DNA of 64,000 nt, taken from contig CP142727.1 of the NCBI GenBank assembly GCA_036630325.1, positions 682,001 to 746,000 on the forward strand, written 5' to 3'. Numbering within the stretch: the stretch's first letter is position 1; every line of letters starts with the position of its first letter. Shown here piece after piece: positions 1,901 through 55,532 of the stretch. The translations under genes and the position numbers were made by a program. The notes below the pieces were generated by a model. That model searched no databases. It had not been told where the DNA came from and saw nothing but the letters and a program-made list of their open reading frames with translations. The stretch is from Vairimorpha necatrix (taxonomy: Eukaryota).

Positions 1901-4756
1901 TATAATCTACACTAGATTTTAATCTAGCATTGTTATTGTTTTGAAGTTAATCAATACAGTAATTGCTTTTCTTATTATCAATACATAAATTTGGCCCAAC
2001 TACAGATTTTGCTGCAAACATCGAGTTTTCGTTTATGGTTTGTAAGTCGTTTTCTAATTGGCAAATTTGCAAAGAGCGAAGTCAAAAGATCTCGTGATTC
2101 TAAAAAAAAATGACAAGTTTTTAAAATGGAATTAAATAAATAAAACTGTGGTATCCACCACTGAGGAAAGTATTTAAAATATTTTTATTGTTAATATTGT
2201 TTTTTCTTTTAATTACTCCGTACCCCTCTCCGGATAAAATGATTAAATAAATGTTGGGGGAAACTGGACGAATTTGGCGGGAAATATTTATAAACTATTT
2301 TTATGATATTTGGGATATCATAAAAATCTATTCATACTAATTACAAATACGTTTTACTAAAATAAAACTACAAAATTTAATATATAAGGATTTCGCAAAA
2401 ATTGATTAAACAATATTAAAATAAGTGTGTTTTATGAAATCCTACTTTATTTTCTATAATGTAAATATGCATTTTTCTTTCATAATATACGAGAAAGGAA
2501 AAGAAAGAGTACTACTGAAAGCTGTTAATGAGAATCAGTCACTTTAAACAATCTTCTACATAACATGGCTGCTCCGAAAAGTTAAAAATTTTTACTTAGT
2601 ACATTAGTCATTTCTTTCTTTAGACTTTTTAGTTGTTTTGAATTCGCGCATTTGGTGATTTTTCTTATATTTATCTCGATTATAAGTTAATATGTACGTA
2701 TTTTCCTAAATATAATCAACACCGATTAAAAGTAATTCAACTGTTTTTAAATTAATTTTACAATTTTTAATAATACACAAAAACCTACACCTTTTATTAT
2801 TTTAAATCATTTTACATTCAAATTTCACTTTTAATTTGCGTAGATTAGATAATTTTTAATTATATTCGTTATTTAATTTTTATAAGGTATTAAAAAAAAT
2901 TCTACATTTCCAAGATACTCGTGGTTTCTATTATTTTTAATTGCAAATGCTTAAAAGTTTTTATTTTAACTTTTTAACCCCTTTTTCCTCTGCTTTCTAT
3001 GTTTAGAATTAATATTTTTTATCCCCAACTTAAATAGTTTTGTCTCGTCGAAACATGTCTAATCATTTCAACCGAATGATTATACTCATTTAGTATTGGA
3101 TATCTACCATAAGCTGTTTTCGTTGTTCCTTAATAATTCCCTATCTTAGGTAAAATTTTTCTTTTTGTTTTTCTTGATCTTTTTCGTTTTTATAGTTTTT
3201 TAACTAGTTACTAGTATTAAATTTAAAAATATGGGTCAAAAAATATAGAAAAAAATCACCAAAACAAACGTCTCTTTATTAACCACAGAAAAGAAGTTCT
3301 GAAGAAAGAAAATGTTACAAACACAATGGTGTATTCTGTCGTTTAAAGACTGATAATCCAAAAGAATTACTAAGGACTACAAAAAATTATGCGAATAGTG
3401 TTCTCTAGATGTGTTTTATCATTCATAAAATTTGGCGGTATCTTTTGAGGTTAATAAAGAAAGCTGCAGGGTGTTTTCTGTAAAAAAAACTGTGCATATA
3501 TCATCTTATCAGCATTTATAGTTAAAGGTGCAAGACAAATGACAACTATTAATTTATATTACCCTACTTGAAAAAGAAAAAATTAATTTAAGTCGCAATA
3601 ATAGAAAATATATTTTGGGATTAACTTTTTTAAAAATGCATAAATTGTTTATAAGAAACTTAATATAATTTACAAAGAATGAGTCAACAGATTTTAGAAA
3701 CAGATACGTTTCATAATTGAGTTTTCTTCCGTAAAATTCGGTTTATAAATCATGAAAAAAAATCTTTTGACAACTAAATTTTATGACGTGTCAATTTATA
3801 GAATATTACAAACCAAGCCGAATGGCTAAAGCATGATAGATAAAAGTAAAATTTTATTCTTGAAAAAGATGACTGCCATAAACAAAATTTTTATTTAATA
3901 AAAAGCTTTTTAGAGAAAGTTTCAGATACATTAAAATATAAATATATGATGATATTATTTTAGTACTCCTGGACCTAATTTATCAATACAAAGTTCATGT
4001 AAAAGCATACGTCATGACATAGGCAGAATCGTGATAACATAACACGTCAAGTATGTATAAGACCATAAGCTCATCGACTGTTTCCACAGCTTATATCAAA
4101 ATTAGAGTCATAAAAAAGACATTGGAGAGCTTCTACTCTGTCAACTGCTTGGCTCGCCGTTAAGGATCTTCAACTAAGAATATAATGAAAGTAGCTAGAA
4201 TGTGGTGTGACCAGTTAGAAGGGCGGCAGTAGATAACCAGTGAAATTCAAATTAAACAACAGCTATAATAAATGCTTTTTAAAAATAAAATTGCTGTTTG
4301 TAAATCGAAGTACTCCCAATTTTTTTCGATCTTTATTGAGAAAGGCTTTTATTACATGAACAAAATCCAGGCCTGCTAGAGGTAATAAATTTATGAATAT
4401 ACTTATTCTCTAAAGAAGAAAGCTTATAACAACATAGACGTCCAAATTAGGACACTATTGCATAATGAACCTCTTTTGATAATTAAATAGAACTAACTTT
4501 AATTAAAAATAACAATCCGATGATTGCAGTAGTTTTGCAAAAATATCTCACTGAGTACCTTCTTAAAATACAAGATGAGACTTTCGAGCTTTCTAGAATG
4601 TGTATATATAAATAATGATCAATCCACAGAAAATCGCAGGCTTTTAAGATCTTCAGTTTTTTATTTCGAAATCTATGTACACTAATTTATCTAAAACATC
4701 TATAACAATATATCTAGATGAAAACTCTTGGAGCATCAAAACACAGAAGGATTACG

Positions 4757-5863
4757 GGATCTAGATTGTTATACGCCGAAAAGGGAGAATAACTAATTTT
4801 GTTAAGAAAATTTTGCCCAAATGAGAACGGTTGTGTCGCAGTTTATAATTTACGTACAAATCCGTAGGAAGCCCCCTTTACAGATGATTTCTGTTCTGCG
4901 AGAACAAAATCTTTTTCTGACCAGTATGCCCTGTTCTGAGTGTTCATCTGGGATGGTTGAGAGTTTGAGGAAGGGCTGACCTTTTATTCTAGACTTACAA
5001 AAATCAAGTGTGCAGGCTCTACAGAAGCACAAAGATCATTAGAATTGAATTTTTTCTTGGGGATATAAATTGCCATTGTCTGAGTATTTCGCTATGATTT
5101 TGCTTTTGAGCGAAGGAAAACAGATTAAAGAGATTATTTCCGATTATTAATTCAGAAACAGCATTGTGGAGATTTTAAACATCTGAGGACTATCCTTTAA
5201 GTATACATTGAGGCCGATCCAATGAGATTGGAGGTCCAGAGTGTATTGCCAGATTGACCAAAGCTCCTTCGTCCACAAGATCAAACATCATTGTAGCAGA
5301 GCACCATCCAGAGATGTGCCTAGTTCCGGAGTCGCAATCACTTTTTTATCTCCTGCGCAGGGCTATATGGAGATTGTCCCCAATAGATCAGCTGCTGTTT
5401 TACTTAAGATCATTGCTAGAATATGTAGACCTGGTTTAATCAACCCCCCAGATGGCTGGTGATCATATGTGAGTGTTGAAAGAGAGTTCGGGTTCCGTCA
5501 TCTGGTTGTAAACCACAAGACAAATTTGACAATCGATAACTGAAGCCCATACTCAGAACATGGAGTCATTCGTGAATAAGATGAAGCATGCGATTAAGAA
5601 AATGTATGGTGTTCAAAAGCGCAACTTTTGGTCTTATAGCTGAACTGATGTTTGAGATGAGTTTAAGGAGACTGTGTTAATCAGAATGCTGGCTTTATTT
5701 GCCATAAGCTAAAAATAAAATAATTCCAAAACAAGCTTGTCTTTTTACAATGCTGCTTTTTTATTATCATGCCTTAAAGTTTTTTCTCTTTTAAAGCTGC
5801 AATTTTTTATTCCGGGCAAATAACAAACTAGGTTTGGCTCCGTGCGCGTAGCAAACTAGATCC
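4757..5863 (+). mobile_element. Merlin-type transposon family B, degenerate
   Basis: TIRs GGATCTAG../..CTAGATCC; 8-bp TSD GGATTACG/GGATTATG; transposase remnant QIDQSSFVHK..GYMEIVPNRSAA..ICRPG (5241-5462). Confidence 0.88.
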
Positions 5864-6144
5864 GGATTATGCATCTTTAACTTAAGAATAAGCGTTCAGT
5901 TTTTTTCCGACTATCGCCTGCTTTTAAAAATCTATTGGTCTACAATGAAAAAAAATGTTTACTATATAAAGCAAGGAATAGTTTATTATGCAAGAGCACA
6001 GGCATGAAATTAGCCATAGACAGTTAGACGGATAATACATAAACATATACGGTATAAAAAATAAAAGTTGATAAAAAACATGAAAATAGTCTATTAACAT
6101 GTATATAGATGTAATAAGTCGATACCCTACTTAGCATTTTTGCC

Positions 6145-7572
6145 TTTTTGAAAAGTAAGAGTTAGGAAAAGAAACTTATCTTGATATCATAGGTAATTGC
6201 ACATGATCCTTATTTTATAGAACAGTAAGACGGTTACTCATTAGAACTATATCTTTCTTTCGCCGGCAAGTAAGATTTCTGTATATATTGGACTTTACTT
6301 TTGAAACCATTTCCATTTATACCCCAAATCGCGTCCAGAGTGATCTCACAGCAGATATACATAACGTGTTAGGGTTCCGACCAGGACAGACATTTGTCAG
6401 CTTACTCAAAAAACATACAATCGTCTTTATCCTCAAAAAGTACCATAAACCGCCATATAACCCCCCTACACTTTCTTGGACTGCGAGAACACAAGTATTC
6501 CAAGAGTGTCTAAAAATTGTTTTAACTTCCAGCATGATTGGCCATGAAAATTCTAATGCTATATTTAGTTAACTCTATTATTTGGCTTGAGACCCCCTGG
6601 AGATTACCAAATATATATTCAACTAGGTTGTGTCCAGCATAACGTTTTATGGTACATGACCGTTTGGAACCCGCATTGGGAAAACGAACCCGCTTTGGGA
6701 AAATAAACTTGCTTTAAAATTATAAAGGACCCCCTTTAAAAAAATGGCAAAATTGGCAAAAACAATGTTTGTTGAGGCAGATGAGATTTTTATTGATGAG
6801 ATGTATTTAACAAGGAATATAAGAAAAAAGTTTATTTTGCAAACATTTGATGCTGAATCGGCGTGCGCCTTGCATGTTTCTGTAACTAGTAGAAATATTG
6901 CTTTTTCCTTGAGGTAATACAAGAAAATGTATAACCTGTTTCTATTATGATCTCTAATCAATGGGTAGCATATGATGCCATATTAGCTAAGCAAAAGGAT
7001 GGAGCACAGTGCAAAGATTCACTCCATAAATGCTGTAATCTCTATCGATTCGAGCAACAATACCATATAATTTAGTTGGTGATGGCTCATTTCTATAAGA
7101 GATATTCGATCTTAACATAAACAAAGAAGAACACTATGAGTACATTTTACAGTTTCACTGGGCTTTCCAAATTCCCAAAAATCGCCGGATAAATTGTCTT
7201 CTGTCATTATTTAAAAAAAACATCAAGTCCCTTTTTTTATTTTTCCCTTTTTTGAATTTTTCAAAGCAGGTTCATTTTCCCAATGCGAGTTCATTTTCAC
7301 AAAGCGGGTTTCAAACGGTCATGTAACCCTTTTATAAATCTATAAAATAAGATATACGGGATTTCAATTTTTATGAGTGTTTCTTCGCTAGATACTGATT
7401 CTCTAATGGCGGAACCACAAGTCCCATTTAATTAACTCGATGATTATTGTGGCCATGTTCATTATCTAAATTGTCTATGGATGCAGCATAGAGATTAGAA
7501 ATAGTATGATGATGCTGGACCGAGACCTACAAAGGTTAATGAAAGCTCATTCAGACCGCCGGGCTTGTGGTC
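6145..7572 (-). mobile_element. Degenerate tRNA-headed SINE copy, interrupted by a Merlin derivative
   Basis: Reverse complement aligns to the SINE at 44027-44807: 3' tail near 6145-6180, body TCACTCTGGACGCGATTT near 6325-6345, and head remnant AGCCCGGCGGT near 7555-7566. Confidence 0.75.
6651..7327 (+). mobile_element. Internally deleted Merlin-type element (family C, MITE-like)
   Basis: TIRs GGTACATGACCGTTT../..AAACGGTCATGTA(A/C)C with subterminal sub-repeats; 8-bp TSD CGTTTTAT/CCTTTTAT; internal VEADE remnant. Confidence 0.8.
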
Positions 7573-8350
7573 TTAGAAATATATTTAAGGATGTCATATG
7601 AAAAAAAACACACTTAAGCCTTTGACTGTTTTATCAAGATGTTAAACTTCATAAAGCGTTTAGATTAATTTAGTAAACTGAAAAGGTTTAAATAGAATTT
7701 AGAATATATCAAGAAAATGGCTGGGTAGAATAACTATTACATAAAATAATAAAGAACATTAGATTAAAACATATACCTGAAAGAGAAAGCGAAATATCTA
7801 AGATTAGAGTATAATATAGGAATTGTTCAATATAGAATATAATGATAAACATTTACAAACACATAAATTAAAAAATATACCATGAAATCTGAAAATAACG
7901 AAACACGGACATCAAGAATTGAGTACAAAATATGGCCCAATTGTGACTTTTAATATAGAAAAAGGATTTGAATTTATAACATCTAGAAGATTTGAACAGA
8001 ATATTTATAGTTGTTTCCATTGAAAAAAGCTCCCGCGGATTGTTGCATAAATATATTGAGTAAAGCGCAAATGTATAAAGTATCTCAAAAAAGCTTTAAA
8101 CACAAAAAATGTGTCAAAAGATTTTAGAAAGTTGTGTAAAGTATTTAAAGAATACAGGATGAAATTCCGAACAAAGAGATGTAGATTTTTGCAATTCGTA
8201 TCTCCACATCCCTATTTAATGACAGATCACGTAGAACGAGCCATACTTTATCTAAAAAATAATAATTGAAAACTATATGATATAATAATGAACGGATCTA
8301 GTATTGTCACATCACTAGAAACATCGACATGTACACTTCTTAAATAGCAC

Positions 8351-8694
8351 TGTGGTATAATGGTTTATACCATATGTTCTCTATTTAACCAATGGTAACT
8401 GAAACACTGATCCCTCAACGGACGATCAATGATGGGTAGCTATTATTGATTAGTTACATCACATTTGCTATTATTAGTTACTCTGTATTAGAAATAAAGT
8501 AAATCCATCAAAGACATGGTACATCACTCGAATACTAACAAACGCCCTTCCTTCTAAATTCAGAAAAGCTAACTCTTTTTATAACAATGAACTATATTTT
8601 TCTTCAAACTATCTAAACTCGGTTTTCACATCACTCCAAAACGTAGCATCATTGATGCTTTCTTGCCACAGGCAAGCTTCCCAGTAAACACGCA
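8351..8694. mobile_element. TG..CA element (solo-LTR-like), 344 bp, 5-bp TSD AGCAC
   Basis: Starts TGTGGTA, ends CACGCA, AGCAC on both sides. 5' hairpin TGGTATAA/TTATACCA and 3' hairpin AGCATCA-T-TGATGCT match those in 35228-35501 and 37512-37828. Confidence 0.72.
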
Positions 8695-9671
8695 AGCACA
8701 ATAAACCCGTTCGTATTAATATTACTATTTATGCATTTGGCGTACTTGAAATCGACTAAGATCTAATAACCACGAATTCTGGTCTCGAATAAAAGGGGGA
8801 AGTTTATAAAAACAAAGGGTAAAATCAAAATAATAATATTAAAATTGCGATATAAATATATCTATCGTACAATTTAAACAACCATTCATGCATATAATTG
8901 AAGTACATGATTTTCGAAGTCTCGTCTTAGGTCGAATATATAAAAACGATGGAAATATAACCGTGGTATAAAATTTTCATAAAATGAAATTAAATACTAA
9001 ATTATGTAGCCATACACATCTGAATTGTATACAATAATAGTTGTAAATAATTATTGCAGTGTGAATGAACAAATATATAGTAGTTTAAGTTTGACGTAAC
9101 CATATATTTGAATGTTAGTATATATTTCTTTTAAAGCTGTAAATGGCCTCTGTAGATAAATACTGCAGTTTAAACTCTAAATATTTGCTTTCAAATGCCG
9201 GAGGAGAGTATTTACTAAACATTCAATTTTGGTCGTGTATGCAAATCACTCTAAGTGTATATTCCGTGATACTATATTCAATACATAATTATAAATTTTA
9301 GCACAATTAAAGCATAAATGCGTGCAGAAAAAAAAACATAATCTAAGATAACATATTTCATTATTTTTTTTGAACCCCGCTTAATCCATTTGAATACGTG
9401 ACTCAACGGCAAAATCAACAAACCTCTTTTGTTCTTACTAACTATAAGATATTCGGCCGATTGTTTCTAGTTTCGATTCAAAATTGTAAAATAATCGTCC
9501 CATATTTATATGAAGATTTCCGCTTAAAATATCTTTTAACAAAAAGATTTATTGTTTTATTTATTAATGATAGATCTAATTATTTAAATTTTAAAATACA
9601 TACGTTTATAAGCAAGATTTTATATGTGCCATCTTTCTTTCATATCCTCACCGTTGAGAAGATATATTTAA

Positions 9672-9720
9672 TGTGATATATTTGTATAATTTCTATCCCC
9701 CATTATGATAAATAAAGACA
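9672..9720 (+). repeat. 5' LTR (49 bp) containing CCCCC motif, ATG (9705) and AATAAA
   Basis: TGTGATATATTTGTATAATTTCTATCCCCCATTATGATAAATAAAGACA, identical to 12842-12890. Confidence 0.96.
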
Positions 9721-12700
9721 TGGGGGCGATACCGAATCGTCAGTTTACAAGTGTGGACTGTGGTCTAGAGGCCAAAAAGTTATTAAAAGAAGTTAGAAGA
9801 ATAATGTATAGGTTGGAGATGGAGGAAATAGAAATCAGTTTGTGGAAGCAGAGAATATTTATGGAAGGAAGTGAAGAAATAAAAAATTTCATGGTAGAAA
9901 GAATTAGTAAAGAGGACGAATATTATAAAATAATTGAGAAATTAGAGGAGGAAATATGTAGAGAAGAAAGAACTAAAAAAGAAGAAGAAAATAGGAGAGA
10001 ACTTATGGAGGTCATAGCTGAGAATGTTAGAGAAACTGTGAGAAAAGAAATTCAAGAGAAAGATTTAGTTTTAAGGAATACAGTACAAGAAATAAGAAAT
10101 AATAGGAATTGTTTTAATTGTGGTAAATTTGGCCATATGGCTAGGAACTGCTATTTAGGAAGGAACAATAATCAGGAAAATAATAAAAAGTTTAATAAGT
10201 ACTTAAATTTAGACGAAAACCTAAGTTGTAGTAGCAGTAATGATAATAAAGAATATAAACCAAGTGGAAAGACAAAACGAGTTAAGTTAAAGGAATGTAA
10301 TAATAGTGATAGAAGACATAAAGAAAGAATATATGCGAGCAATAAAGAGACGAAAAGAAGATTACTGAAGAGGGCATTTACGTTGGAAGATCTCAAAGCG
10401 GAATATGAAGAAGTTTTTAAACAAGGAGATGAGGTTATAAGTTATTGTACATTAGAGAAGTGTAAGATAGATACTCCAGAGGGTAAGAAGATAGTCAGAA
10501 AGGGACAGACGATCCCACAGGCTTTGACCAAACAGACTGAGGAATATATTAAGGATTTAGAAAATAGAAAAATTATAAGAAGATCGTCTTCGGAATGGCG
10601 AAACCCAATAAGAGCGATACTTAAACCAAGTGGTGAAGTAAGAGTTGTTAGTAATTTTATAGGGTTGAATGATTTAGTCGAGAAAGACCCGTATGAGCTA
10701 ACGAATATGAGAGAAATAATAAGAGCTAAGCAAGGGTCGATAATATTTACTGTTGTTGATTGCAAAGAAGCATTTTACCATTTTGAAATCGAAGAAAAAG
10801 ATAAACATAAGACGGCGTTTGAATTTAATAAAAAAGTTTACGAATGGAATAGTATGGTGATGGGATACAAAAATTCCCCACAGATACTACAGAGAACGAT
10901 GAATATGATTTTTGAAGATTTGCGGGGAAATGGTGTTGAGGTATACATGGACGATATAGTAATACATGCCAACAATAAACGTAAACACGATGAATTAGTA
11001 ATAGAGGTTATAGAAAGAATTAAGAGAAATAAAATGAAATTAAATATTGGGAAAATACAGTTTAGACAAGCGGAAGTAAAATTATTAGGTGTGACGCTGA
11101 ATGGAATAGACATGACGGCCGACGAAATAAAGAAAAATGAAGCCTTGGAGTATCCGGATCCAAAAACTTTGACGGAATTGAGGAGGTTTCTAGGATTGAC
11201 TGGATGGTTCAGACCATTTATAAAAGATTATGCCGGGCTGACGTTGAAAATGACAGATAGTTTGAAGAAAAATGGCAATTCGTGGAAATTTACGGAAGAG
11301 ATGAAAGAGGAATTTACTAAAATGAAAAATGTGTTAAGAAATATGGGAAGACTAAGATTACCGGACTATAATAAGGAGTTCATACTAAGAACAGACGCTA
11401 GCAATTTGAGATTGGGTGCGGTGTTACTTCAGAAGAATGAGAATGGGGAATGGGTTGCTATACAATGGGCATCTAAAAAGCTAACACCTACCGAAATAAG
11501 ATATGGAATATCAGAAAAGGAAATGCTTGCGATATATTGGGGCATTGATAAATTTAAATACGAGTTAAGAGGTAGGAAATTCAAGATAGAAACGGATCAC
11601 AAAGCACTGGTGGAGATAAGAAATAAACCGTTTTTTAATAATAACAGAATAAATCGCTTAATCGAGAAGATACAGGAATATGATTTTATCGTGGAATATA
11701 AAAAACCTGATGAGATGGTGGTAGCAGATGCGTTGAGTCGAATAAATATGGAAGAGGATATTAAAGAAATGAAAAATAAAGAGCGAACAATCAAGCAAAC
11801 AGAAGGTAAATGGAAAGCACATGTTTCTTCCGAGAATGGAAAGCAATATTGGCAATTTGACTCAGGACGTAAAGTTGAAATACCACCTGAGAACATAAGG
11901 AGACAATTAATCCAAGAATATCATGAAAAAGTAGGCCACAGATGCATGACAAGTGTTTATTATGCAATGAGAGAAGAATACTATTGGCCAGGAGTAAAGA
12001 AAGAAATAAACGAGGTTATAAAACAGTGTCAGAAATGTCAGATATATAACAGGAAAAATATGGGTGGTTGTGAATTTGTAGATACGTCGAGATACTTAGA
12101 GAAGGTTGCATTAGATTTGATAGACTTTAGAAATGAGAAGAAATATGTTTTAGTTGCTATCGATTATTTTACACGTAGAGTATGGGGAGTAGTTATAAAT
12201 AACAAGTCAAGTAATAATGTTGTTGGATTTTTGAAAAGATTATGTGAGCAAGGGAAGAAACCAGAAGAAATTATTACAGATAACGGGAAAGAGTTTATTA
12301 ACGTGGAATTTAGAAAATTTTGTAGAGATCTCGATATAATACACCGACAAGTAAGTATAGAAGCGCATAGAAGTAACGGAAGAGTAGAGCGTGTTATAGG
12401 AACTTTGAGAGAAAGTATTTTAAAGTCGGATGCGAAAACTTTTGAAGGCAAAGTGTATAAAAGTATCGATATATATAATCAGAGCTATCATACGGGAATA
12501 AAATGTACACCATTAGAAGCGACTGAAGATAAAACTGGAGACGTAATGCTTGAAAATAGCCCTATAGGGAAATATTGTAATAGGTTTGGAAAGGGAAAGA
12601 TCGAAAAATTTAATAAAGGTCAATTGGTAAGAATAGCTAAACGAGAAAATTTGGCAGGTGTTAATAAGTATGAAAAAGGAAGATTTTTGGATACAGGGAA

Positions 12701-12818
12701 AATTGTTGAAAAGTGTGGAAAAGATTCTTATATTGTAAAACTTAGTAATGGTAGGCTTGTGAAGAAGAGACATTATGATCTGAAGGGTATGCTTGGGGTA
12801 GATGTGAAAATTAGATGA
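9705..12818 (+). CDS. gag-pol: Single Gag-Pol polyprotein (short Gag with CCHC knuckle, RT, RNase H, integrase; no recognisable protease)
   Basis: CFNCGKFGHMARNC; RT DCKEAF, MGYKNSP, YMDD; RNase H TDAS, EKEMLA, TDHKAL, ADALSR; IN HEKVGH..CQKC, IDYFTR, TDNGKEF, NGRVER. RT-RH-IN order is Ty3/Gypsy. Confidence 0.96.
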   Translation: MINKDMGAIPNRQFTSVDCGLEAKKLLKEVRRIMYRLEMEEIEISLWKQRIFMEGSEEIKNFMVERISKEDEYYKIIEKLEEEICREERTKKEEENRRELMEVIAENVRETVRKEIQEKDLVLRNTVQEIRNNRNCFNCGKFGHMARNCYLGRNNNQENNKKFNKYLNLDENLSCSSSNDNKEYKPSGKTKRVKLKECNNSDRRHKERIYASNKETKRRLLKRAFTLEDLKAEYEEVFKQGDEVISYCTLEKCKIDTPEGKKIVRKGQTIPQALTKQTEEYIKDLENRKIIRRSSSEWRNPIRAILKPSGEVRVVSNFIGLNDLVEKDPYELTNMREIIRAKQGSIIFTVVDCKEAFYHFEIEEKDKHKTAFEFNKKVYEWNSMVMGYKNSPQILQRTMNMIFEDLRGNGVEVYMDDIVIHANNKRKHDELVIEVIERIKRNKMKLNIGKIQFRQAEVKLLGVTLNGIDMTADEIKKNEALEYPDPKTLTELRRFLGLTGWFRPFIKDYAGLTLKMTDSLKKNGNSWKFTEEMKEEFTKMKNVLRNMGRLRLPDYNKEFILRTDASNLRLGAVLLQKNENGEWVAIQWASKKLTPTEIRYGISEKEMLAIYWGIDKFKYELRGRKFKIETDHKALVEIRNKPFFNNNRINRLIEKIQEYDFIVEYKKPDEMVVADALSRINMEEDIKEMKNKERTIKQTEGKWKAHVSSENGKQYWQFDSGRKVEIPPENIRRQLIQEYHEKVGHRCMTSVYYAMREEYYWPGVKKEINEVIKQCQKCQIYNRKNMGGCEFVDTSRYLEKVALDLIDFRNEKKYVLVAIDYFTRRVWGVVINNKSSNNVVGFLKRLCEQGKKPEEIITDNGKEFINVEFRKFCRDLDIIHRQVSIEAHRSNGRVERVIGTLRESILKSDAKTFEGKVYKSIDIYNQSYHTGIKCTPLEATEDKTGDVMLENSPIGKYCNRFGKGKIEKFNKGQLVRIAKRENLAGVNKYEKGRFLDTGKIVEKCGKDSYIVKLSNGRLVKKRHYDLKGMLGVDVKIR

Positions 12819-12841
12819 GACTTACCGTCTTGAGGGGGGGA

Positions 12842-12890
12842 TGTGATATATTTGTATAATTTCTATCCCCCATTATGATAAATAAAGACA
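12842..12890 (+). repeat. 3' LTR (49 bp)
   Basis: Identical to the 5' LTR; preceded by a G-run PPT and followed by TSD TTTAA. Confidence 0.96.
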
Positions 12891-14189
12891 TTTAATAAAT
12901 TAACCCTTAACTTACAATTATCCTTAACATGGTGGAGAATATGGGATCGAACCCAAAAATGCTCAAAAGATTAGGTTGTAAATTCTGTCAAGGAATGAGA
13001 CGTAAAAAATGCAGTAATATTAAAATGGGGTTGGTTAATTGAAAACAGAAGAAAAGGTGATGGCCTGCATCAGTCGAGGGACCCGGATAGGTGAATATGA
13101 GGAGGTGCAATGAAGAGCTATTAAGAACAGAATTGACTGTAATAAGATCTAGCATAAGAGTTGTCAAGATTGATTGTAGTGGTTATCTCAACATTCACAT
13201 TAAAGCTATCGTGGCAAGATAGCTGAACCACGAGTGTTCAAAAATCCAGAGAGATTTAAAAGAGAAGGAATCAAAAAAACTGTGTTGTCGTTAAAAAATG
13301 AGATAGGCCGATAAAATCCGTTTCCATTGTTGGGGAGACATGTAAAAGAAAAATATCATGCCCATAGACTTTATGTATTTGTACAGGAAAAGAAGTGCCG
13401 TAAAGACCAATACAAGAAGGATAGTAAAATACGAAAGGGTAAAGCGCAGCCCATGGTCAATAAACTTAAAAAATGCACTTTTATTTAGAAGCCAAGCAGT
13501 AGGCATAGAAAGTTGTAAATATAATTACATCACTCAGTTCTAAATTTAGCGCGGGATGTTGAAAATATATATTTAATAAATTAACCCTTAACTTACAATT
13601 ATTTTTAACACTTAAATTGATGTGCAGATGATCTAACTATAAATGGTTTTGCGTACATGAAGTAAATATGAAATATCCGAATAAAAATTTAAACTACGTA
13701 GATACATATGTTTGTTTTCGTATTTGTCAGATGTAAAATTCAATATCGAAGTTTTTTTTTGCACCAATTACAACCTTTCAGGAAGGCTTCTAACGATTTT
13801 GTCGTATTTTTATCTTTGGTCTGTATAGATCGTTATGTATTTAATAGTCGCTTGAATTATCATACGTAATTATTATGCTCTTCTTGTATTTTAGATCTGT
13901 TGCTGTCATTGTTTCGTGCTTCGTTTCTTTGACAGAACTTTAATAATTGGAGATTTGTTTGTTCACTTCTAGTCTTAGCAATTAATTTCCTGGCTAAGTG
14001 TTAGTTCTTTGGATTTAGTATTTGTCTTTACATTTTGTATGTATTCAGAGGCAATCGTTATATAGGTTGACTATTTTTGTCTAATCATAAACCTTATCTG
14101 GTTTTAAGCCTTAAAGTTATTAAAGAAGTAAATAGTATGTGTATGAATTTATTTCAAATGTTTATTTTACTCCGGACATCTTTAGTTTA

Positions 14190-14560
14190 TAATTTTTCAT
14201 TGAAGCTATTATTGGTTACTTTTATTCTTCAATTTACTATACATCCGCGCACTCTAGCTGGCCATACAATCCTCTAGATACCATCTACTATGTTCTTGGT
14301 TTAAAATCCTCTAGCGCAGTGTCTCGCCGGCGTTCAAAGGAGATGCGCTTTAGTGTCTTTTTTTTAATTCTCATTGGATGTAGGCTTCGGTACTAGTCGA
14401 TAGGCCAAGTGCATTGATAAGGTGTGTGGTATTTTGTCACAATTCCGTCACATTTCATGATGTATTATATTATTTGATTTGTACGTTAGCACAATTCATT
14501 TGCTAAGATATCGCAGTTTTTGAGTTTTTCCTGTTCTACTTTCGGTAATTATCCTAAGAG
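14190..14560 (-). mobile_element. Degenerate REL-LINE 3' fragment (boundaries approximate)
   Basis: Minus strand reads DGIVTKYH and KKTLKRISFERRR, homologous to the LINE C-terminus. Confidence 0.65.
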
Positions 14561-14960
14561 GGTAGACATCTCGAATAATAAGCATAAATTTCTAGATGAT
14601 GCTAACACAAAGAAATTTCTTTTTCAACCAATGGTTCCTTAATTATAGTTTTATGCTTGTAGATTTTCTACACTTTTAGTTCTCTTTTTCCGTGTTTAAA
14701 ATAGTTGTTATATTTGCAGGAAAATGTATTTTCGAATATGATATATTTCTGGGTTTACTTTGCAAGTCAATATATACCAAAATACCATAGATGTTTTATA
14801 ATTCTAAAGGAAACAATATAAATATTTTACTTATTGAAGAATATGATTTTTTTTTGATATATATCTTTATTTTTAAAAACTAATTCTTAGTTAGCAATTA
14901 GAGGAATATTGTTACAAAAGTTGTGGCATTATAATTACCACAAACAAATAATTTTCCCCC

Positions 14961-14999
14961 TTTTTGGAAATAGACCATTCGAACGGTCTATTCCAAAAA
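14961..14999. promoter_or_regulatory. Near-perfect palindrome ~20 bp upstream of a CCCC motif; putative regulatory site
   Basis: TTTTGGAAATAGACC-ATTCGAAC-GGTCTATTCCAAAA; a related copy lies inverted at 25029-25060. Confidence 0.4.
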
Positions 15000-15236
15000 T
15001 TTATTATTTATATAAATTTTACCCCCAGCCCACAGAATTCAACATGAAGAAAACTATAAAAATGTTCTTAACATATACCCTTGGAATACTAAACCAAGGA
15101 AGAGCAGGAACGCTAGGGAAAATATAAAACCCTTTATTATGCACAACGGAGTCAAGTAAAGACTAAAAAACAGTTTCAATTTCATCGTTGAAATCGGCTC
15201 AAAAGTAGCATATGTTTTTCGTCAAAATCAATATAA

Positions 15237-16043
15237 ATGGAAAAAAGGATTCTCGATTTAATTAAAAAAAATAATGAAATCTACAATAGGCACCTTGAAG
15301 ATTTCGAAATCGACGAAATCTTCAGGACCTATTTTAAAGTGCACAAAGTTTTCGATGAGGCCCTTCTAATTGGCCCCATCGAAAATTTCCAAAATGAAAA
15401 AAACTCCAGGAGCCGAACACCCCAAGAGGTGAAAGCGCTAAAACCTGGAGGCAGGCACGAAGGGCCAGTGTCTGTTAAGAGAGAATCATCCCCAATGATT
15501 TCTCTTCTGTAAGCTTCCCTAAGACCAGGGAGACCCTTCAAATTTCTAAATGATGTCTTGATCTCTGACATTCCCTTTGGGCTCCTGACGCCAAGGCAGA
15601 AAGACAAGCTCATTGACATCATGGAATGTGTCGTTGTAGAAGAAGGGGAGGTCTTTATTAGGGAAGGCGAAAAGGGCAGTACCATGTTTGTGGTAGATGA
15701 AGGCATTTTTGATGTCTACATCAAAAATGTAAGAACCAAGTCCCTTGAAAGAGGAGACAGTTTCGAAGAAATTGCTTTATTTCACAATATTGACAGGACT
15801 GCCACTGTTATTAGCAGAGTAAAATCAAAAATTTGGGTCATAGAACAGAAGATGTTTGGAGGCCTGAGGGCCTTCGACAGAAATAAGAATAAAGGTATAG
15901 TTCTGGACGGGATAACCAAAATGAAGTTATATCCCGATCTAATTGAGAGAGAACTTATAAGTTTTGTAAATACATTAACTTTCGATTATCTTAAAATTGG
16001 CAGTACTGCTGATATTATCACGACAAACTTTCTCTTTACATAG
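15237..16043 (+). pseudogene. cAMP-dependent protein kinase regulatory subunit (PKA-R/Bcy1-like) pseudogene
   Basis: RRASV inhibitor-site motif followed closely by an in-frame TAA; cNMP-binding domain (IREGEKG..MFVV..G, FEEIALFHNIDRTATV); frameshifts; second cNMP domain truncated. Confidence 0.82.
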
Positions 16044-17563
16044 CCGGATTTGGCTAAATGAACAAGAAATGTAACAAATAAATTTAGAAGAAAATTATTC
16101 GTACATGAGATTAACCGTTAAACTTTCCATATTTTAATAAATTCCTAAATAATTATTTGTTGTATATTATTTAAGTCTGTTTGTGTCATTGTAAACTGTA
16201 GTATTTCTTAGCTTTCCTTCGCAATTGCCATACCCTTATTTTTAAAATTAAAATAAGACCAAAAAATCTAAAGAAGTCATTTTCTAGAAAAATTAATGAT
16301 CAGAATAAAATTTGTTTCTCGACATTTGATAAAATCACAGGATAATAGTAGACAGTGCACTTAAATAAACATATTATTATAATGAAGTTTGTAAAATTTA
16401 TCTAAAATGTTTAAATTCAATATTGACTGTGGACTGTTGTTTGAACAACAGTCTGTGAAGAATTCTTCCTTTGAATTCGTTTATTCAATTTATTAACTCC
16501 TTATTAGCATGATTTTCTTTTATGTTTATGGGCAAGAAAATATGATACATTTATTCTTCAAAAAAGATAATTAGAATAAAAGAGAAAAATATCAACGTAT
16601 TAGTATCCATTAAGTTTCAGGATTATGAGGATTTTTGAAGATCTGTCCTTTAACATATACATCTTGTATAATTTGCACTTTTCAATTTTTAAGTAGTTTC
16701 TAAGCCACGCGAAACAAATAATTTTTACTGTTCGATTAATTATTATCCCTGATGTATCTTCACTAACATAGTTCATCAATATTTCTTCGGTTTCAACATC
16801 TTTTTTATTTAATTTTGATCAAAACACTGTTCAATTAAAAAAAATAATGTCTGTATATTAATAATTATATTTTTCTTTGAAAATATTCTTCTGTTTGTAA
16901 GTTGTGGGGATACGTCATTAATTAATTGAATGGCAGCCGATATTCATGAGTATTTTGTCTTTAATTTTGGCCCCAACATAACAGTATTAAGAACAACAAA
17001 GGCCCGAAATGTTTAGTTTACCGAATTGAGCTATTATAATTGCATTTATGAAGAAAGGAAAAAAAGAAATTTTAAAGGAAAAAGAGTAAAAAGGCTTGGA
17101 GATTTATTAATGGTCGAGGAAACATAATTCAACCATAAAAAATTGATTTTGTTTGGTTATGATTATGAAAAAGGTTGTCAAAAGGACGTTACTTATAACA
17201 GAAAATCTGAAAAAATATTTTAAAGATTAAAAATGAAGAGAACATAAGCATCAAGAATTAACACACTAAATTTAATTCCAGAATTTTTAGTAATCGTGTA
17301 CAAAATAAATCTTTAATGTGATAGATTCATTTTCCAATTTTATACGATTCTAGACTGTATACTTTTTTACTAAAATCTTATTTCTAAAAACGATATGAAA
17401 AAAACAAAATTAGATACAAAAAATATTCTAAGAAAAAATTTAACTCATAAAACCTTTTAAATTTAAATATAATTATGGTTTTTTATAAATAAAAATACCT
17501 TAGTGCTTAAATTATAAAAGGTTTTGTTCTTTTAATATACGGAGAAGTGTTTTATTTATATAA

Positions 17564-20500
17564 AAACTTTTGTGAGTTGAATTTTAGCTTCGGTAGATAT
17601 TTGTAACACATCTTGTCCCAGTATTGCTCATATTATTTAACTCTTCGCAGACTTTGGCTTCATAAGTATATCTGTTTTTCAACTCAGAATTTTCAGCTTT
17701 ATTCCCCTTTGCCGACACCATCTAATTAACGGTCACCGTATTCGCTAGTATGCTTACAGCTCTAACACTTTTTTTCTCTTGCATCCTCTTGATCGCATAC
17801 TCGTCTTTACTCAAAATATATGAATTCTAGAGTCTTTCCAGCACAATATACTGGATGTATGTTTTAAGGTAGGGTTTGATTTTCAGCTTTCTGCTGTACT
17901 TTATGTGATATTTGGTCACCACTTCATCTTATGTCTCTACATAAGAAACTTTTCATGTGCAAAATTTATGTATTAGTCAATTTCATTTGCAAGAAAGTCA
18001 TATTTGCTTAGTTTTTTATTCTCGACAATGTTAAGTCGATTCTTATTGGTTATACCAACTAAACCTTTCTTATTTCATTTTTTGTTTTTTCAAACGGCAT
18101 CATATTAGGCCCATTATGGGTCTCTTCTTTAGTGATTTAATCGTATCTATTTTTATTTTCGCTCGATCATTTTCCTTAATTCCGCAAACCACGTGTCCAT
18201 GTATTTCCTTGCTGATCTGAAACCCAAATTAAATACATACTATTAGATATATGCATCTAACTACCTAGTTGTGTCTTTTTACATAATCAAGCCAACGTTT
18301 AATCACACTTTGTAGCTAAATTCACCACGGGGTTCTTATGAGATCCACAATGAGAACTTTGTCCCCATTGTTCATAAATAGTATTTCTATTTTCTTGCAA
18401 CATCAAATTACTTTGTATCGAGCATGATTGTTTTCCCCGTCTAACTAGGTAGAAGAGTTTTTAATGTTTACTAAATCATTGTACCTAGCTTTAAACAACT
18501 TTCCATGGTTTGTCCTTATGTTAATTTTGTTGTAAAGCGCTTCTTTTAGGGATTTTATTAGCATCTTCTGGGTTATATCTTCTACAAGCTAAGCCTAATC
18601 CTAAACATCGATACTTGTAAAGAAGTGTGATTTGCTCTCTTCCTCTACTTTAATTATCGCTGCCGTCGAATTAAGCTATTTATAGACCATCTAATGTTTT
18701 GAAAATATTCAAAAACATACTTTCGCTTCTATCTTCGATACTTATGAGGCCTCTACTCATTTCGGATTAGGTATGTATAGTCTTTCCTTGCAGACTGGCT
18801 GTAGATGAACCTGGTATTTGATAAGTACCTGTTGGATATCAAAATTTATACTTTTGAAATCTATTGGTTCTAATTTTAATAATCCTACATGATATTTTAT
18901 TATTGATATTGCATGGCTAGAGCTCGAAACATATTCATACCTTTTAATGAGTCTTGCTTAGTTTTTAAACCCTCTGTAGGATCTTATTCCTTACTTTTTC
19001 AAAAGTCTCTCTTTTGACAGCACTAGAGGCATCCACTGTTATTCCAAGGTATTTGTATCCTTGAAGCCTTCTAGTACTAACACATCTTCGCTACAATCAA
19101 TACAGTTAGTCGCAGACTTACTCCTGTTCATTTCTAGACCTACAGCTTAAAAAACCTTTTGTGTTTCCTCATTCTTCAGTTTTAAAACGACATCGTTCTC
19201 TGCGAGGAGCTAAAGATCATCAATAAATAGAAGATGGTTTGTTCATAGACACTTTCGTGAATCTGTATTCCTACTTTTGGGTAAGTTGAATTCGGTTTCC
19301 TGCTCAACACGTTCATACATAGCACAACAAAAGCCGCGACAAGGAACCCCCTTGTAATATGCCTCTTTCATTCTTCTTATTCAGTATCGTTTTTGATACT
19401 CATGTTATCTCAACGTGCCACCTTTTAACGGTGGATTCTAAGAATATACTTATCCATTGAGGGAAATTAAACTTGCTTATACATGTTAATAGATAAGAAT
19501 GGTCTACGGAGTAATAGGCTTTTGTTACATCTATTTACATGGTCTTCAGCTTGTTTATATGCTCCTCATTGACTGATATATTAATCAGGCTTGTTCTTAC
19601 ACTCCTTGGACTTGTCTAACTGTCCCTGGTTAATTCTCTGCGAGTAGCCTCTACTTTCTACAATTAGCTGCATTATTTTCGCCGTGCAATATGTTGAAAG
19701 CTTGTAGAGGTTCGACATACTGGTAATAGGCCTTAAGTCATTATTACTAATGGGGGTACCTTTGGGTATAAAATAAGTAATCTCCTTGTAGAACCAAGCT
19801 TCAGGTTCTTTACCATCCATGCATACTTCCTTAACAATCTTGTAAAGGAATGGGCGTAGAGCTTCACATTTCTTATAAAGAAATTGAAGATTTCATCACA
19901 GTCTGCAGCCTTCAAATTCTGTAAATATTTAATAATATCTACAAATTTTTGCAAGGTTGGAAATGATCTGATCTTGGCTATCAGGAATGTACTCTGGAGA
20001 AACATCTCTAGACTATTACAGTCTTCGGATTGCTTTTTCTGATTCCACATCTTAGACTAGAATGAACTAATATCTTCTTTGCTTACATTATGAGTAACTT
20101 CATTGGCACACTTGAGTTTTCTATAGAAATTGCTTCTATTTAGCTCAAAATTCTGAAATAAGCCCCTATAACTCTGCGTCGGTCTGCGACCTCTATCTTC
20201 CTTGAGTATATGGCTTTCCTCAAGTTGAGTATAGCATTAGCTTCAGAAGTATCTCGGTGTAAACATGCAAGCATGTTGAGTTTACGCATTACCTTCTTGA
20301 ATTCACGATTTCCTCATTTGAGAGTTTATCAAAAGCCCTGGCCTTTTTGATAAGCACTACATTGTCTTCAATCTCAGTAATTTTTTTCAAAATTCTTACC
20401 TTTTAAGAGAAGGTTTGGGCTTCTTACTGGCCATTTCCTAATATCAGATCTGCGCAGCTTGCAGTATCTTTGCCATCTGGTACATTTATGAGGGGAGGAG

Positions 20501-21102: not shown

Positions 21103-21156
21103 TATATAATCAACGCATAAATTTAAAATTAATTTTATACCCCCACTTTTTTAAAT

Positions 21157-23784: not shown

Positions 23785-23838
23785 TATATAATCAACGCAT
23801 AAATTTAAAATTAATTTTATACCCCCACTTTTTTAAAT

Positions 23839-29357: not shown

Positions 29358-32300
29358 TGTGATGTTTTTTATAATTCTATCCCAATATGATAAATAAAGA
29401 CATGGGGGCGATACCGAATCGTCAGTTTACAAGTTTGTACTGTGGTCTAGAGGCCAAAAAGCTATTAAAGGAAGTTAGAAGAATAATGTATAGGTTGGAG
29501 ATGGAGGAAGTAGAAATCAGTTTGTGGAAGCAGAGAATATTTATGGAAGGAAGTGAAGAAATAAAAAATTTCATGGTAGAAAGAATTAGTAAAGAGGACG
29601 AATATTATAAAATAATTGAGAAATTAGAGGAGGAAATATGTAGAGAAGAAAGAAATAAAAAAAAGAAGAAAATAGGAGAGAACTTATGGAGGTCATAGCT
29701 GAGAATGTTAGAGAAACTGTGAGAAAAGAAATTCAAGAGAAAGATTTAGTTTTAAGGAATACAGTACAAGAAATAAGAAATAATAGGAATTGTTTTAATT
29801 GTGGTAAATTTGGACATATGGCTAGGAACTGTTATGTAGGAAGGAACAATAATCAGGAAAATAATAAAAATTTTAATAAGTACTATAATTTAGACGAAAA
29901 CCAAAGTTGTAGTAGCAGTAATGATAATAAAGGATATAAACCAAGTTGAAAGACAAAAAGAGTTCTGTTGAAGGAATGTAGTAATAGTGATAGAAGACAG
30001 AAAGAAAGAATATATGTTTGCAATAAAGAGACGAAAAGAAGATTACTGAAGAGGGAATTTACGTTGGAAGATCTCAAAGCGAAATATGAAGAAGTTTTTA
30101 AACAAGGAGATGAGGTTATAAGTTATTGTACATTAGAGAAGTGTAAGATAGATACTCCAGAGGGTAAGAAGATAGTCAGAAAGGGACAGATGATTCCACA
30201 GGCTTTAATCAAACAGACAGATGAATATATTAATGATTTAGAAAATAGAAAGATTATTAGAAGATCGTCATCGGAATGGCGAAACCCAATAAGAGCGATA
30301 CTTAAACCAAGTGGTGAAGTAAGAGTTGTTAGTAACTTTATAGGGTTGAATGATTTAGTCGAGAAAGACCCGTATGAGCTAACGAATATGAGAGAAACAA
30401 TAAGAGCTACGCATGGGTCGATAATATTTACTGTTGATTGCAAAGAAGCATTTTACCATTTTGAAATCGAAGAAAAAGATAAACATAAGACGGCGTTTGA
30501 ATTTAATAAAAAAGTTTACGAATGGAATAGTATGGTGATGGGATACAAAAATTTCCCACAGATACTACAGCGAACGATGAATAAGATTTTTGAGGATTTG
30601 CGAGGAAATGGTGTGGAGGTATACATGGACGATATAGTAATACATGCCAAAAACAAACGTAAACACGATATACTAGTTTTAGAAAGAAGAAGGGAAATAA
30701 AATGAAATTAAATAGTTGGAAAATACAGTTTAGACAAGCGGAAGTAAAACTATTAGGTGTGACGCTGAATGGAACAGACATGACGGCCGACGAAATAAAG
30801 AAAAATGAAGCCTTGGAGTATCCAGATCCAAAAACTTTGACGGAATTGAGAAGATTTTTAGAATTGACTGGATGGTTCAGACCATTTATAAAAGATTATG
30901 CCGGGTTGACGTTGAAAATGACAGATAGTTTGAATAAAAATGGCAAATTGTGGAAATTAACGGAAGAGATGAAAAAGGAATTTACTGAAATGACAAATGT
31001 GTTAAGAAATATGGGAAGACTAAGATTGCAGGACTATAATAAGGAGTTCATACTAAGAACAGACGCTAGCTATTTGAGATTGGGAACCGGGGTTACTTCA
31101 AAAGAATGAGAATGAAGAATGTGTTGCTATACAATGGGCATCTAAAAAGCTAACACCGACAGAAGTAAGATATGGTATATCAGAAAAGTAAATGCTTGCG
31201 ATACATTGGGGCATTGATAAATTAAAATACGAGTTAAGAGGTAGGAAATTCAGGATAGAAACGGATCACAAAGCACTGGTTGAGATAAGAAACAAACCGT
31301 TTTTCAATAATAACAGAATAAATCGCTTAATCGAGAAGATACAGGAATATGATTTTATCGTTGAATATAAAAAACCTGATGAGATGGTGGTAGCAGATGC
31401 GTTGGGTCGAATAAATATGGAAGAGGATATTAAAGAAATGAAATTAAAGAGAAAACAATCAAGCAAACAGAAGGTAAATGGAAAGCACATGTTTCTTCCG
31501 AGAATGGAAAGCAATATTGGCAATTCGACTCGGGACGTAAAGTTGAAATACCACCAGAAAATATAAGGAGACAATTAATCCAAAAATATCATGAAAAAAT
31601 AGGCCACAGATGCATGAAAAGTGTTTATTATGCAATTAGAGAAGAATACTATTGGCCAGGAGTAAAGAAAGAAATAAATGAGGTTACAAAACAGTGTCAG
31701 ATATGCCAGATATATAACAGGAAAAATATGGGAAGTTGTGAATTTGGAGATACGTCGAGATGTTTAGAGAAGTTGCATTCGACTTGATAGACTTTATAAA
31801 TGAGAAGAAATATGTTTTAGTTGCTATCGATTATTTTACACGAAGGGTACGGGGAGTAGTTGTAAATAACAAGTCAAGTAATAATATTGTTGGATTTTTA
31901 AAAAGATTATGTGAGCAAGGGAATAACCCGGAAGAAATTATTACAGATAACGGTAAAGAGTTTATTAACGGAAAATTTAGAAAATTTTGTAGAGATCTGG
32001 ATATAATACACCAACAAGTTAGTATAGAAGCGCATAGAAGTAACGGAAGAGTAGGGCGTGTTATAGGAACTTTGAGAGAAAATATTTTAAAGTCGGATGC
32101 GAAAATTTTTGAAGGTAAAGTGTGTAAAAGTATCGAGATATATAATCAGAGCTATCATACAGGAATAAAATGTACACCAATAGAAGCGACTGAAGATAAA
32201 ACTGGTGACGTAATGCTTGAAAAAAGCCTTTTAGGGAAATATTGTAATAGGTTTAGAAAAGGAAAGATTGAAAAATTTAGTAAAAGTCAATTGGTAAGAA

Positions 32301-32559
32301 TAGCTAAACGAGAAAATTTGGCAAATGGTAATAAGTATGAAAAAGGAAGATTTTTGGATACAGGGAAAATTGTTGAAAAGTGTGGAAAGGATTCTTATAT
32401 TGCAAAACTTAGTAATGGTAGGCTTGTGAAGAAGAGACATTATGATCTGAAGGGTATGCTTGGGGTAGATGTGAAAATTAGATGAGACTAGCCGTCTTGA
32501 GGGGGGGGGGATGTGATATATTTGTATAATTTCTATTCCCATTATGATAAATAAAGACA
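29358..32559 (+). mobile_element. Second, degenerate copy of the mini-LTR Ty3/Gypsy family
   Basis: LTRs 29358-29402 and 32512-32559; TSD TTAAA; same PBS and PPT; ORF broken by frameshifts and stops; empty site in the paralog near 36055. Confidence 0.95.
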
Positions 32560-54791: not shown

Positions 54792-55532
54792 CGTTGAGAA
54801 TATATATTTAATAAATTAACCCTTAACTTACAATTATCCTTAACATGGTGGAGAATATGGGATCGAACCCAAAGATGCTCAAAAGATTAGGTTGTAAATT
54901 TTGTCAAGGAATGAGACGTAAAAAATGCAGTAATGTTAGAATGGGGTTGGTTAATTGAAAACAGAAGAAAAGGTGATAGCCTGCATCAGTCGAGGAACCC
55001 GGATAGGTGAATATGTGGAGGTGCAATTAAGAGCTATTAAGAAACAGTATTAAATGTAATAAGATCTAGCATAGGAGTTGTCAAGATTGATTGTAGTGGT
55101 TATCTCAACATTCACATTAAAGCTATCGTGGCAAGATAGCTGAACCACGATTGTTCAAAAATCCAGAGAGATTTAAAAGAGAAGGAATCAAAAAAAACTG
55201 TGTTGTCGTTAAAAAATGAGATAGACCGATAAATTTCGTTTCCATTGTTGGGGAGACGTGAGTAAAGAAAAATCTCATGCCCATAGACTTTATGTATTTG
55301 TACAGGAAAAAAAGTACTGTAAAGACCAACACAAGAAAGGATAGTAAGACGCGAAAGGGTAAAGCGCAGCCCATAGCCAATAAACTTTAAAAAATGCACC
55401 TTTATTTTGAAGGCCAAGCAGTAGGCATAGAAAGTTGTAAATATAATTACATCACTTAGTGCTAAATTTAGCGCGGGATGTTGAAAATATATATTTAATA
55501 AATTAACCCTTAACTTACAATTATTTTTAACA
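54792..55532 (+). mobile_element. Uninterrupted TRIM-like element (741 bp, 54-bp LTRs)
   Basis: LTRs 54792-54845 and 55479-55532; PBS TGGTGGAGAATATGGGATCGAACCC; short GGGA purine run before the 3' LTR; imperfect TSD (TTCAC/CTCAA). Confidence 0.87.

Follow-up and report, generated by a model that had tools for sequence, protein, structure and literature searches.

Ty3/Gypsy retrotransposons and retroviruses are held to require maturation by a protease and a capsid of two lobes; the Ty3 polyprotein is ordered Gag, protease, reverse transcriptase (RT), RNase H and integrase. The element described here lies in a stretch of 64,000 nucleotides from Vairimorpha necatrix (assembly GCA_036630325.1, contig CP142727.1, positions 682,001 to 746,000, forward strand; hereafter the window) and is Gypsy by descent, yet fails both of these defining features. 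It is a complete Gypsy-lineage element of 3,219 bp at window positions 9672-12890 with a single open reading frame (ORF), and it belongs to a clade, the 'mini' clade below, in which the loss of the protease is real and general.

Three microsporidia-specific groups of single-ORF Ty3/Gypsy elements are reported in the parts covered of Parisot et al. 2014 (PMC4202319), and the supplement to that paper contains the Anncaliia algerae consensus retro_L, a complete element of 3,127 bp with a 50-bp long terminal repeat (LTR) and an ORF at 32-3049. The first ~600 nt of retro_L, compared by eye with no alignment, hold an ATG within the LTR, a zinc knuckle and AATAAA followed after 12 nt by TAT. In its one polyprotein, its 50-bp LTR and the ATG inside that LTR, retro_L is like the mini clade (the comparison covers the start of retro_L), and its listing together with the same layout and motif suggests that it is likely a clade member catalogued without comment. 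Most of the complete A. algerae elements in the table of that paper are unlike the mini clade, at 3.6-4.3 kb with LTRs of 100-270 bp; the word 'protease' is absent from its main text, and a protease-less architecture is undescribed in the passages covered. In Nosema bombycis, 'nearly all' Nbr elements consist of five domains, a protease among them, according to the covered portion of PMC2474625, and a protease-less Nbr exception may already be in print (Xu et al. 2006), while PMC13174016, as far as it was covered, only restates the single-polyprotein point. In the open literature searched, a microsporidian Gypsy clade lacking the protease was not found described.

Like Ty3 and other Metaviridae, the element has the RT-RNase H-integrase order, a tRNA primer site, a polypurine tract, TG...CA LTRs, a 5-bp target duplication and one CCHC knuckle; unlike them it has no aspartic protease between nucleocapsid and RT, one capsid-like lobe in place of a two-lobe capsid domain, LTRs of 49 bp, no frameshift and a length of 3.2 kb. 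The non-autonomous LTR elements (terminal-repeat retrotransposons in miniature, or TRIM; large retrotransposon derivatives, or LARD; Morgane, TR-GAG and BARE-2) lack coding sequence, Gag or Pol. The mini clade is like these in its very short LTRs, small size and missing standard parts, and unlike them in that RT, RNase H, integrase and half of Gag are conserved across genera. The 'no intact coding capacity' by which TRIM and LARD elements are recognized does not describe it, as the full ORF stands in 3 of 30 family copies and in several sister families.

A Gypsy lineage without a protease

The reading frame is open over 9690-12818 and, from the first ATG at 9705 inside the 5' LTR, encodes 1,037 aa ending at the stop at 12816-12818, with a helical Gag, the knuckle, RT, RNase H and integrase in that order. 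Pfam matched the knuckle, RT, RNase H and integrase of this ORF and neither a protease nor a Gag family. All of the catalytic and zinc residues of the three enzymes are present (14/14), and they are invariant in 28/28 aligned relatives. The features discussed are these:

9667..9671, plus strand: left target-site duplication, TTTAA, 5 bp (right copy 12891-12895; single copy at the empty site 54807-54811)
9672..9720, plus strand: 5' LTR, 49 bp, TG...CA ends, containing the first ATG (9705) and an AATAAA (9711-9716)
9721..9733, plus strand: primer-binding site, complementary to the 3' end of a host tRNA-Pro(AGG) gene followed by CCA; translated
9756..9989, plus strand: single capsid-like helical lobe (aa ~18-95), AlphaFold predicted local confidence (pLDDT) >90 over most of it
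9924..10100, plus strand: long charged helix (aa 74-132) at the position of the capsid C-lobe, its start being the last helix of the lobe
10110..10151, plus strand: CCHC zinc knuckle, Pfam PF00098
10152..10373, plus strand: low-complexity linker at the protease position, without a retropepsin
10182..10202, plus strand: N-K-x4-Y motif, AATAAA (10182-10187), 12 nt, Tyr codon TAC (10200-10202); candidate internal poly(A) site or retained cleavage site
10374..11741, plus strand: RT and RNase H (RT catalytic Asp at 10758, 10950, 10953; RNase H residues at 11394, 11520, 11595, 11727)
11883..12818, plus strand: integrase with HHCC, D-D-E core (12114, 12279, 12387) and conserved C-terminal part
12818..12841, plus strand: clade-specific AGAC-N4/5-GTCT motif, then the polypurine tract (6/6 mini versus 0/8 protease-bearing families)
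12832-12841, plus strand: polypurine tract
12842..12890, plus strand: 3' LTR, identical to the 5' LTR
29358..32559, plus strand: second family copy, 94% identical, decayed, also without a protease; AATAAA motif at 29863
54807..54811, plus strand: empty insertion site, one TTTAA, in the second copy of a duplicated segment

A first-pass annotation of this DNA had claimed that neither family copy in the window encodes an aspartic protease, and that some 75 Asn/Lys-rich residues without D-(T/S)-G separate a CCHC knuckle at ~10110-10151 from RT. Motif scan, Pfam, profile search and AlphaFold all agree with this; the knuckle falls at 10110-10151, and the linker of 74 residues (N13, K13, S7, R8) contains 14 hydrophobic residues, whereas four related proteases have 35-41 such residues in 92. 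None of the three D-[TS]-G words that the element contains in its six frames lies upstream of RT. A retropepsin hidden Markov model (HMM), built locally from 32 natural sequences, gave -2.1 bits on the 9705 ORF and at most 0.7 bits on every mini-clade protein; four protease-bearing ORFs of this genome that had been held out reached 29-70 bits, and the relatives P0054, P0059 and P0065 24-37 bits, the protease of P0066 being found by Pfam. In the AlphaFold model from 38 aligned sequences, aa 1-230 are helical or disordered and contain nothing beta-rich, so that the retropepsin fold sought in aa 150-230 is absent by structure prediction and HMM alike, and no retropepsin family occurs in the 38 aligned clade members among the 25 of 33 Pfam families listed.

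The distance from the knuckle to an RT anchor in 43 relatives is 101-240 aa (median 120), and falls below 125 aa in 22 of them; in four protease-bearing relatives the catalytic Asp alone lies 134-155 aa from the same anchor. The 9672-12890 copy measures 148 aa, which overlaps the latter range, and therefore length alone does not exclude a protease in that copy. A hidden or frameshifted protease is rejected on the evidence of the six-frame scan, the HMM, Pfam and the linker lengths in relatives taken together.

The genome amounts to 15.0 Mb in 12 contigs, and 40 of 317 family candidates were scored, so that the copy count is a lower bound: at least about 25 near-full-length copies, all spanning 3.1-3.2 kb. 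The LTRs are identical in 9 of the 20 copies that have both ends, a target duplication flanks 16 of these, and the family has been recently mobile. Ten loci from an RT search resolve into five further protease-less families of 3.07-3.19 kb with LTRs of 38-49 bp, ORFs of 1,003-1,042 codons and an ATG within the LTR. Ten protease-bearing loci of the same genome are 4.0-4.3 kb long where both LTRs are resolved and have LTRs of 180-320 bp and different primer sites; no relative sharing the LTR or primer site of the clade was found among these 10 sampled copies. At the protease-bearing loci L056-L065 the ORF likewise starts within the LTR, most are without a TGG-type primer site, and several carry an H-H-C-type knuckle variant. 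That the element is a deletion derivative of a protease-bearing master is ruled out by the uniform 3.1-3.2 kb copies and by a protease-less clade.

Relatives extend beyond this genome. Among the 120 matches listed in a protein search, the best ~55 are 574-1,188 aa long and lie mostly on 3-kb contigs; those with names come from Vairimorpha, Nosema and Enteropsectra, with one filed under a bacterial metagenome-assembled genome (MAG). The layout is common to the relatives from these three microsporidian genera, which points to a microsporidian host. The clade relatives at loci L102-L105 are filed inside Clostridium and Turicibacter MAGs and are most likely eukaryotic contigs binned by error, and no relatives were found in viral contigs.

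In a 42-row RT-RNase H tree, from which truncated or unclear rows and P0057 were left out, all 27 protease-less rows form one clade (Shimodaira-Hasegawa-like approximate likelihood ratio test 98, bootstrap 99) that is nested among protease-bearing Gypsy-type proteins; the 22 mini rows are a subclade of it (93.9/94), and the successive sisters P0054/P0059, P0065, P0066 and P0117 all bear a protease. A quick tree of 92 rows, with 4 short rows removed and the insect outgroup reduced, gives the mini clade a support of 99, with one two-lobe group unresolved. As the trees include no curated reference set, no named Gypsy clade is assigned. P0054, P0059, P0065 and P0066 are like the clade in position, as sister groups, and in a homologous first Gag lobe, and unlike it in keeping the second capsid lobe and the protease; P0051, P0052 (Enteropsectra breve), P0055, P0060 and P0061 are sister groups too, have the homologous first lobe and, like the mini clade, no protease, yet keep the second lobe. 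The simplest history is one protease loss in the lineage followed by loss of the capsid C-lobe. The lineage is old, monophyletic and mostly microsporidian, and has kept RT, RNase H, integrase, the N-lobe and the knuckle. The ratio of nonsynonymous to synonymous change (dN/dS) was computed between families and is unusable because synonymous sites are near saturation (proportion of synonymous differences 0.62-0.85). With no retropepsin fold in aa 150-230, and with both the family and the clade lacking the protease where the alternative would be that most copies carry one, the protease loss and the short Gag are taken as real and common to the whole clade.

The history of the insertion can be read within the window. 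Positions 1-9672 and 12890-22071 recur at 45168-64000 with 97-98% identity, and the second copy is without the element; because that duplicate has a single TTTAA in its place, this is a true insertion, and it is recent. The duplication is tandem and exceeds 18 kb (window 1-22071 and 45168-64000), with the element in the first copy only. The earlier statement that the RT, RNase H and integrase motifs are intact and the LTRs identical holds for the first copy, whereas the copy at 29358-32559 carries frameshifts, stops and differing LTRs.

At its 5' end the LTR/primer-site junction creates a second in-frame ATG (9720), as it does in sister families. The AGAC-N4/5-GTCT pattern lies just 5' of the polypurine tract at window 12818-12830 and at L046, L048, L049, L050, L052, L083, L095, L096 and L102; it has 194 partly overlapping matches in the genome and 0 in the control, and a stable hairpin was ruled out (z +0.7).

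The Gag region and the motif after the knuckle

The Gag is indeed short, as the first-pass annotation had it; where a short E/K/R-rich helix had been described at the N-terminus, aa ~18-95 instead form a conserved small helical bundle. Aligned to the two-lobe Gag of the nearest relatives, the lobe profile matches the first half (hhalign probability 70%, E 4e-5, 59 columns), and no second alignment to the two-lobe Gag was returned. Because it aligns only to the first lobe, aa ~18-95 is read as the capsid N-lobe, the C-lobe having apparently been lost. Among six families of the genome the lobe is 37% identical, compared with 22% for the following helix and 22% for the linker, and the length of the helix differs among relatives.

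Structure searches with aa 1-307 and with the lobe alone gave no clear match. Arc lobes were recovered at Z 5.6-5.9 (root-mean-square deviation 2.8-4.0, 64-70 residues aligned), and helical bundles of no relation scored equally well; Foldseek returned the Ty1' capsid C-terminal domain at E 3.9-5.0, and Atlas Retrotrans_gag clusters scored 0.90-0.93 from 123-135 shared features only. A VIA search with the lobe had no capsid entry among the 50 matches listed, which excludes nothing, and a sequence search of the PDB with the Gag profile matched essentially via the knuckle. The trimer prediction for lobe and helix scored 0.00 (alignment not used) and speaks neither for nor against assembly. In one protein of 309 aa, P0261, a decayed integrase-like stretch comes immediately after the Gag lobe and knuckle of the mini type.

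Shortly after the knuckle the linker, otherwise unalignable, contains a recurrent word. Of 43 proteins, 21 have N-K-x4-Y within 30 aa of the knuckle, where shuffling predicts 1.0; it lies 2-18 aa after the knuckle and its inner residues are free, and two additional cases appeared among later matches. In the DNA it reads AATAAA, 12 nt, TAY in all five mini families that have it and for which DNA was available (L001, L046, L050, L068, L083), the background for AATAAA coding of other N-K pairs being 69/128. Across 15 intact ORFs (6 mini, 9 protease-bearing) N-K-x4-Y is coded with AATAAA in 5/5 cases at the end of Gag versus 5/13 elsewhere, and in the six mini ORFs an in-frame TA lies 12 nt 3' of AATAAA at 3 of 43 sites, all 3 of them past the knuckle. 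In three further families an N-K coded by AATAAA lacks the Tyr and is followed in frame, 6 nt on, by a TGY codon.

Locus L070, with two stops exactly at the Tyr position, was excluded from all counts because it is decayed and frameshifted. S-K, I-K and N-R as variants of the signal, and F, C or L for Y, were post hoc and are uncounted, and T-richness after the motif was left unused, the test being partly circular. A subclade without N-K-x4-Y (P0018, P0020, P0024, P0027, P0029, P0032, P0035; locus L104) has ~Y-T-F-D/E-R directly after the knuckle, a word that may mark another way of ending Gag.

How Gag might be supplied without a protease

An element with a single ORF and neither frameshift nor protease would attach ~100 kDa of enzymes to each Gag, and single-ORF elements require some device for excess Gag (PMC5580714, as far as covered). 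The likeliest reading of the motif, to which we give slightly less than an even chance, is an internal poly(A) site at which the tail completes a UAA stop, yielding a Gag-only mRNA and an uncut Gag-Pol. The 49-bp LTR would act as a host-type promoter with almost no 5' untranslated region (UTR), and some transcripts would be cleaved and polyadenylated ~13 nt past the AAUAAA that follows the knuckle, a distance assumed for the host. Cleavage after the T or A of the in-frame TAY would let the poly(A) tail turn UAY into UAA, and the product would be a stop-containing mRNA of ~165 codons for a free Gag of lobe, long helix and knuckle. Read-through transcripts would serve as genomic RNA and encode the Gag-RT-RNase H-integrase polyprotein, which would act uncut within a small particle or ribonucleoprotein (RNP) of the ~165-aa Gag, its assembly being putative. 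A protease, whether from the element or a helper, would then be unneeded.

Reports on another microsporidian are counted in favor of such a device. In the covered parts of PMC2803860, AAUAAA of Encephalitozoon cuniculi is reported to be recognized stochastically with read-through, and 5' UTRs are shorter than 7 nt and begin after a CCC-like motif; by eye, the 5' LTR carries an AATTT/CCC-type microsporidian promoter pattern like those of that paper just 5' of the ATG at 9705. A parallel is offered by the Ty1/Copia elements EVD, BARE1 and Drosophila copia, which make a Gag-only mRNA via splicing and early termination (PMC5580714, covered in part) and are like the proposal in being single-ORF elements with a short Gag mRNA that ends early. 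In those elements the stop arises from the splice, short RNAs left unspliced and lacking a stop yielded no Gag, and a protease is retained, whereas the putative device of the mini clade would involve no splice and a stop completed by the tail. A Gypsy Gag stop completed by poly(A) was not found described in the open literature. The first-pass annotation had offered unprocessed function, a host protease or borrowing in trans; a Gag-only mRNA from an internal poly(A) site was absent from its options and appears to have the best sequence support of the routes.

Several observations weigh against this poly(A) proposal. Of 43 relatives, 22 are without the exact motif, among them an entire subclade, the L052 family, L102 and L104, and the post-knuckle N-K of L049 is coded AACAAG. 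The codon test is small (5/5, p about 0.05) and the families in it are related. With 16 AATAAA in the 9705 ORF, a signal must consist of more than the hexamer. The genome is also rich in protease-bearing families: of 150 PF13975 matches scored, 146 exceed the Pfam cut-off. The motif also resembles a retropepsin site, with Asn at P2 in 10/24 and L/Y/V/M/I/F at P1' in 19/24, and AATAAA-12-TAT stands at the knuckle/protease junction of the protease-bearing L059 and L063. In the protease-bearing L036 and L041, N-K-x4-Y lies within the start of the protease. These four loci would suit a poly(A) device in general use as well as a cleavage site passed on by descent, and some protease-bearing microsporidian Gypsy elements may use the same poly(A) device. 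Other A. algerae elements, compared by eye in the covered part of the supplement, are inconsistent, AJ having N-K-x4-L and AT, BS and BZ no N-K at the end of Gag. Among 28 Gag-like matches no deposited Gag-only protein ends four residues past the N-K, which is uninformative.

Retropepsins read the span P4-P4'. The N and K of the motif fall at P7 and P6 relative to the Tyr, outside that span, which was counted in favor of the poly(A) reading over a protease site. The strongest competitor supposes a semi-autonomous parasite, whose polyprotein is co-packaged via the N-lobe in the particles of protease-bearing families and cut by their protease, N-K-x4-Y being an ancestral nucleocapsid/protease cleavage site still in use. 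Many protease-bearing Gypsy families reside in this genome and make borrowing possible; they include ORFs of 1,260-1,340 aa with near-identical LTRs. Both the missing C-lobe and a motif that stands at the nucleocapsid/protease junction, and resembles one, would suit it. We consider it unlikely, if to be taken seriously: the clade shares neither LTR, primer site nor 3' motif with the protease-bearing elements sampled (10 copies for LTR and primer site, 8 families for the 3' motif), and those families are distant on the RT tree. Lys occupies P2 in 4/24 sites (including the 9672-12890 element) and G/C/K/R/S occupies P1' in 5/24, and cleavage of the protein gives no reason to expect AATAAA codons. 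Between RNase H and integrase the element has a charged stretch of variable length without the hydrophobic pair of five protease-bearing families of the genome, although in the close protease-bearing relatives P0054 and P0059 this junction has the same look as in the mini elements.

The remaining alternatives are less probable. A capsid-less RNP, in which only the full-length polyprotein is made and its lobe, helix and knuckle work in cis on RNA, as a chaperone or oligomeriser, in the manner of LINE ORF1p, the motif having another role or none, would accord with a long helix in place of the C-lobe, with a polyprotein without clear internal cleavage sites and with the 22 relatives that lack the motif; it seems improbable, since it leaves the fixed N-K-x4-Y spacing and the AATAAA coding unexplained while the N-lobe stays more conserved than the linker between families. 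It is very improbable that a host protease frees Gag at the conserved Tyr. That residue does occupy a fixed place in a disordered, exposed linker, but nothing points to such an enzyme (no search for a candidate was made) and the codon pattern would be unexplained. Scarcely credible is an absence that is only apparent, through a very diverged protease in the linker or dead deletion derivatives of a protease-bearing master: apart from the overlapping 148-aa spacing of the 9672-12890 copy, the shorter spacings in relatives (minimum 101 aa), the HMM and Pfam results and the uniform length of the copies largely refute it. The poly(A) reading leads to a broader proposal, advanced tentatively and with less than even confidence from sequence comparison, that the lineage may be self-sufficient without a protease or a two-lobe capsid, with internal poly(A) setting the Gag:Pol ratio, the Gag-RT-RNase H-integrase protein left uncut, and assembly from a single lobe and helix.

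Surrounding sequences and significance

The element is nested in the 5' LTR of a ~740-bp TRIM-like element (window 9652-9671 and 12891-13610), of which an intact paralog lies at about 54792-55520. This TRIM-like element has ~55-bp LTRs, no long ORF and about 40 genomic copies of 77-100% identity, with a primer site that we take to resemble tRNA-Ala. Elsewhere in the window are IS1595/Merlin-type transposase remnants (76-684, 22429-22893 on the minus strand, and 45243-45851), duplicated ORFs with a cyclic-nucleotide-binding domain (15513-16043, 57403-57966), a cyclic-nucleotide phosphodiesterase ORF (40213-41058) and repeated pieces related to the cyclic-nucleotide ORFs near 21000-24500 and 63000.

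LTRs of 38-49 bp fall below the usual settings of LTR finders, and such families may therefore be under-counted. A lineage that has lost the protease and the second capsid lobe stepwise and is still spreading across microsporidian genera tests how small a working LTR machine can be. The candidate poly(A) site, for its part, bears on the long-standing problem of how single-ORF elements obtain more Gag than Pol, and a stop completed by poly(A), if true, would be a route that was not found described for Gypsy elements in the literature searched.

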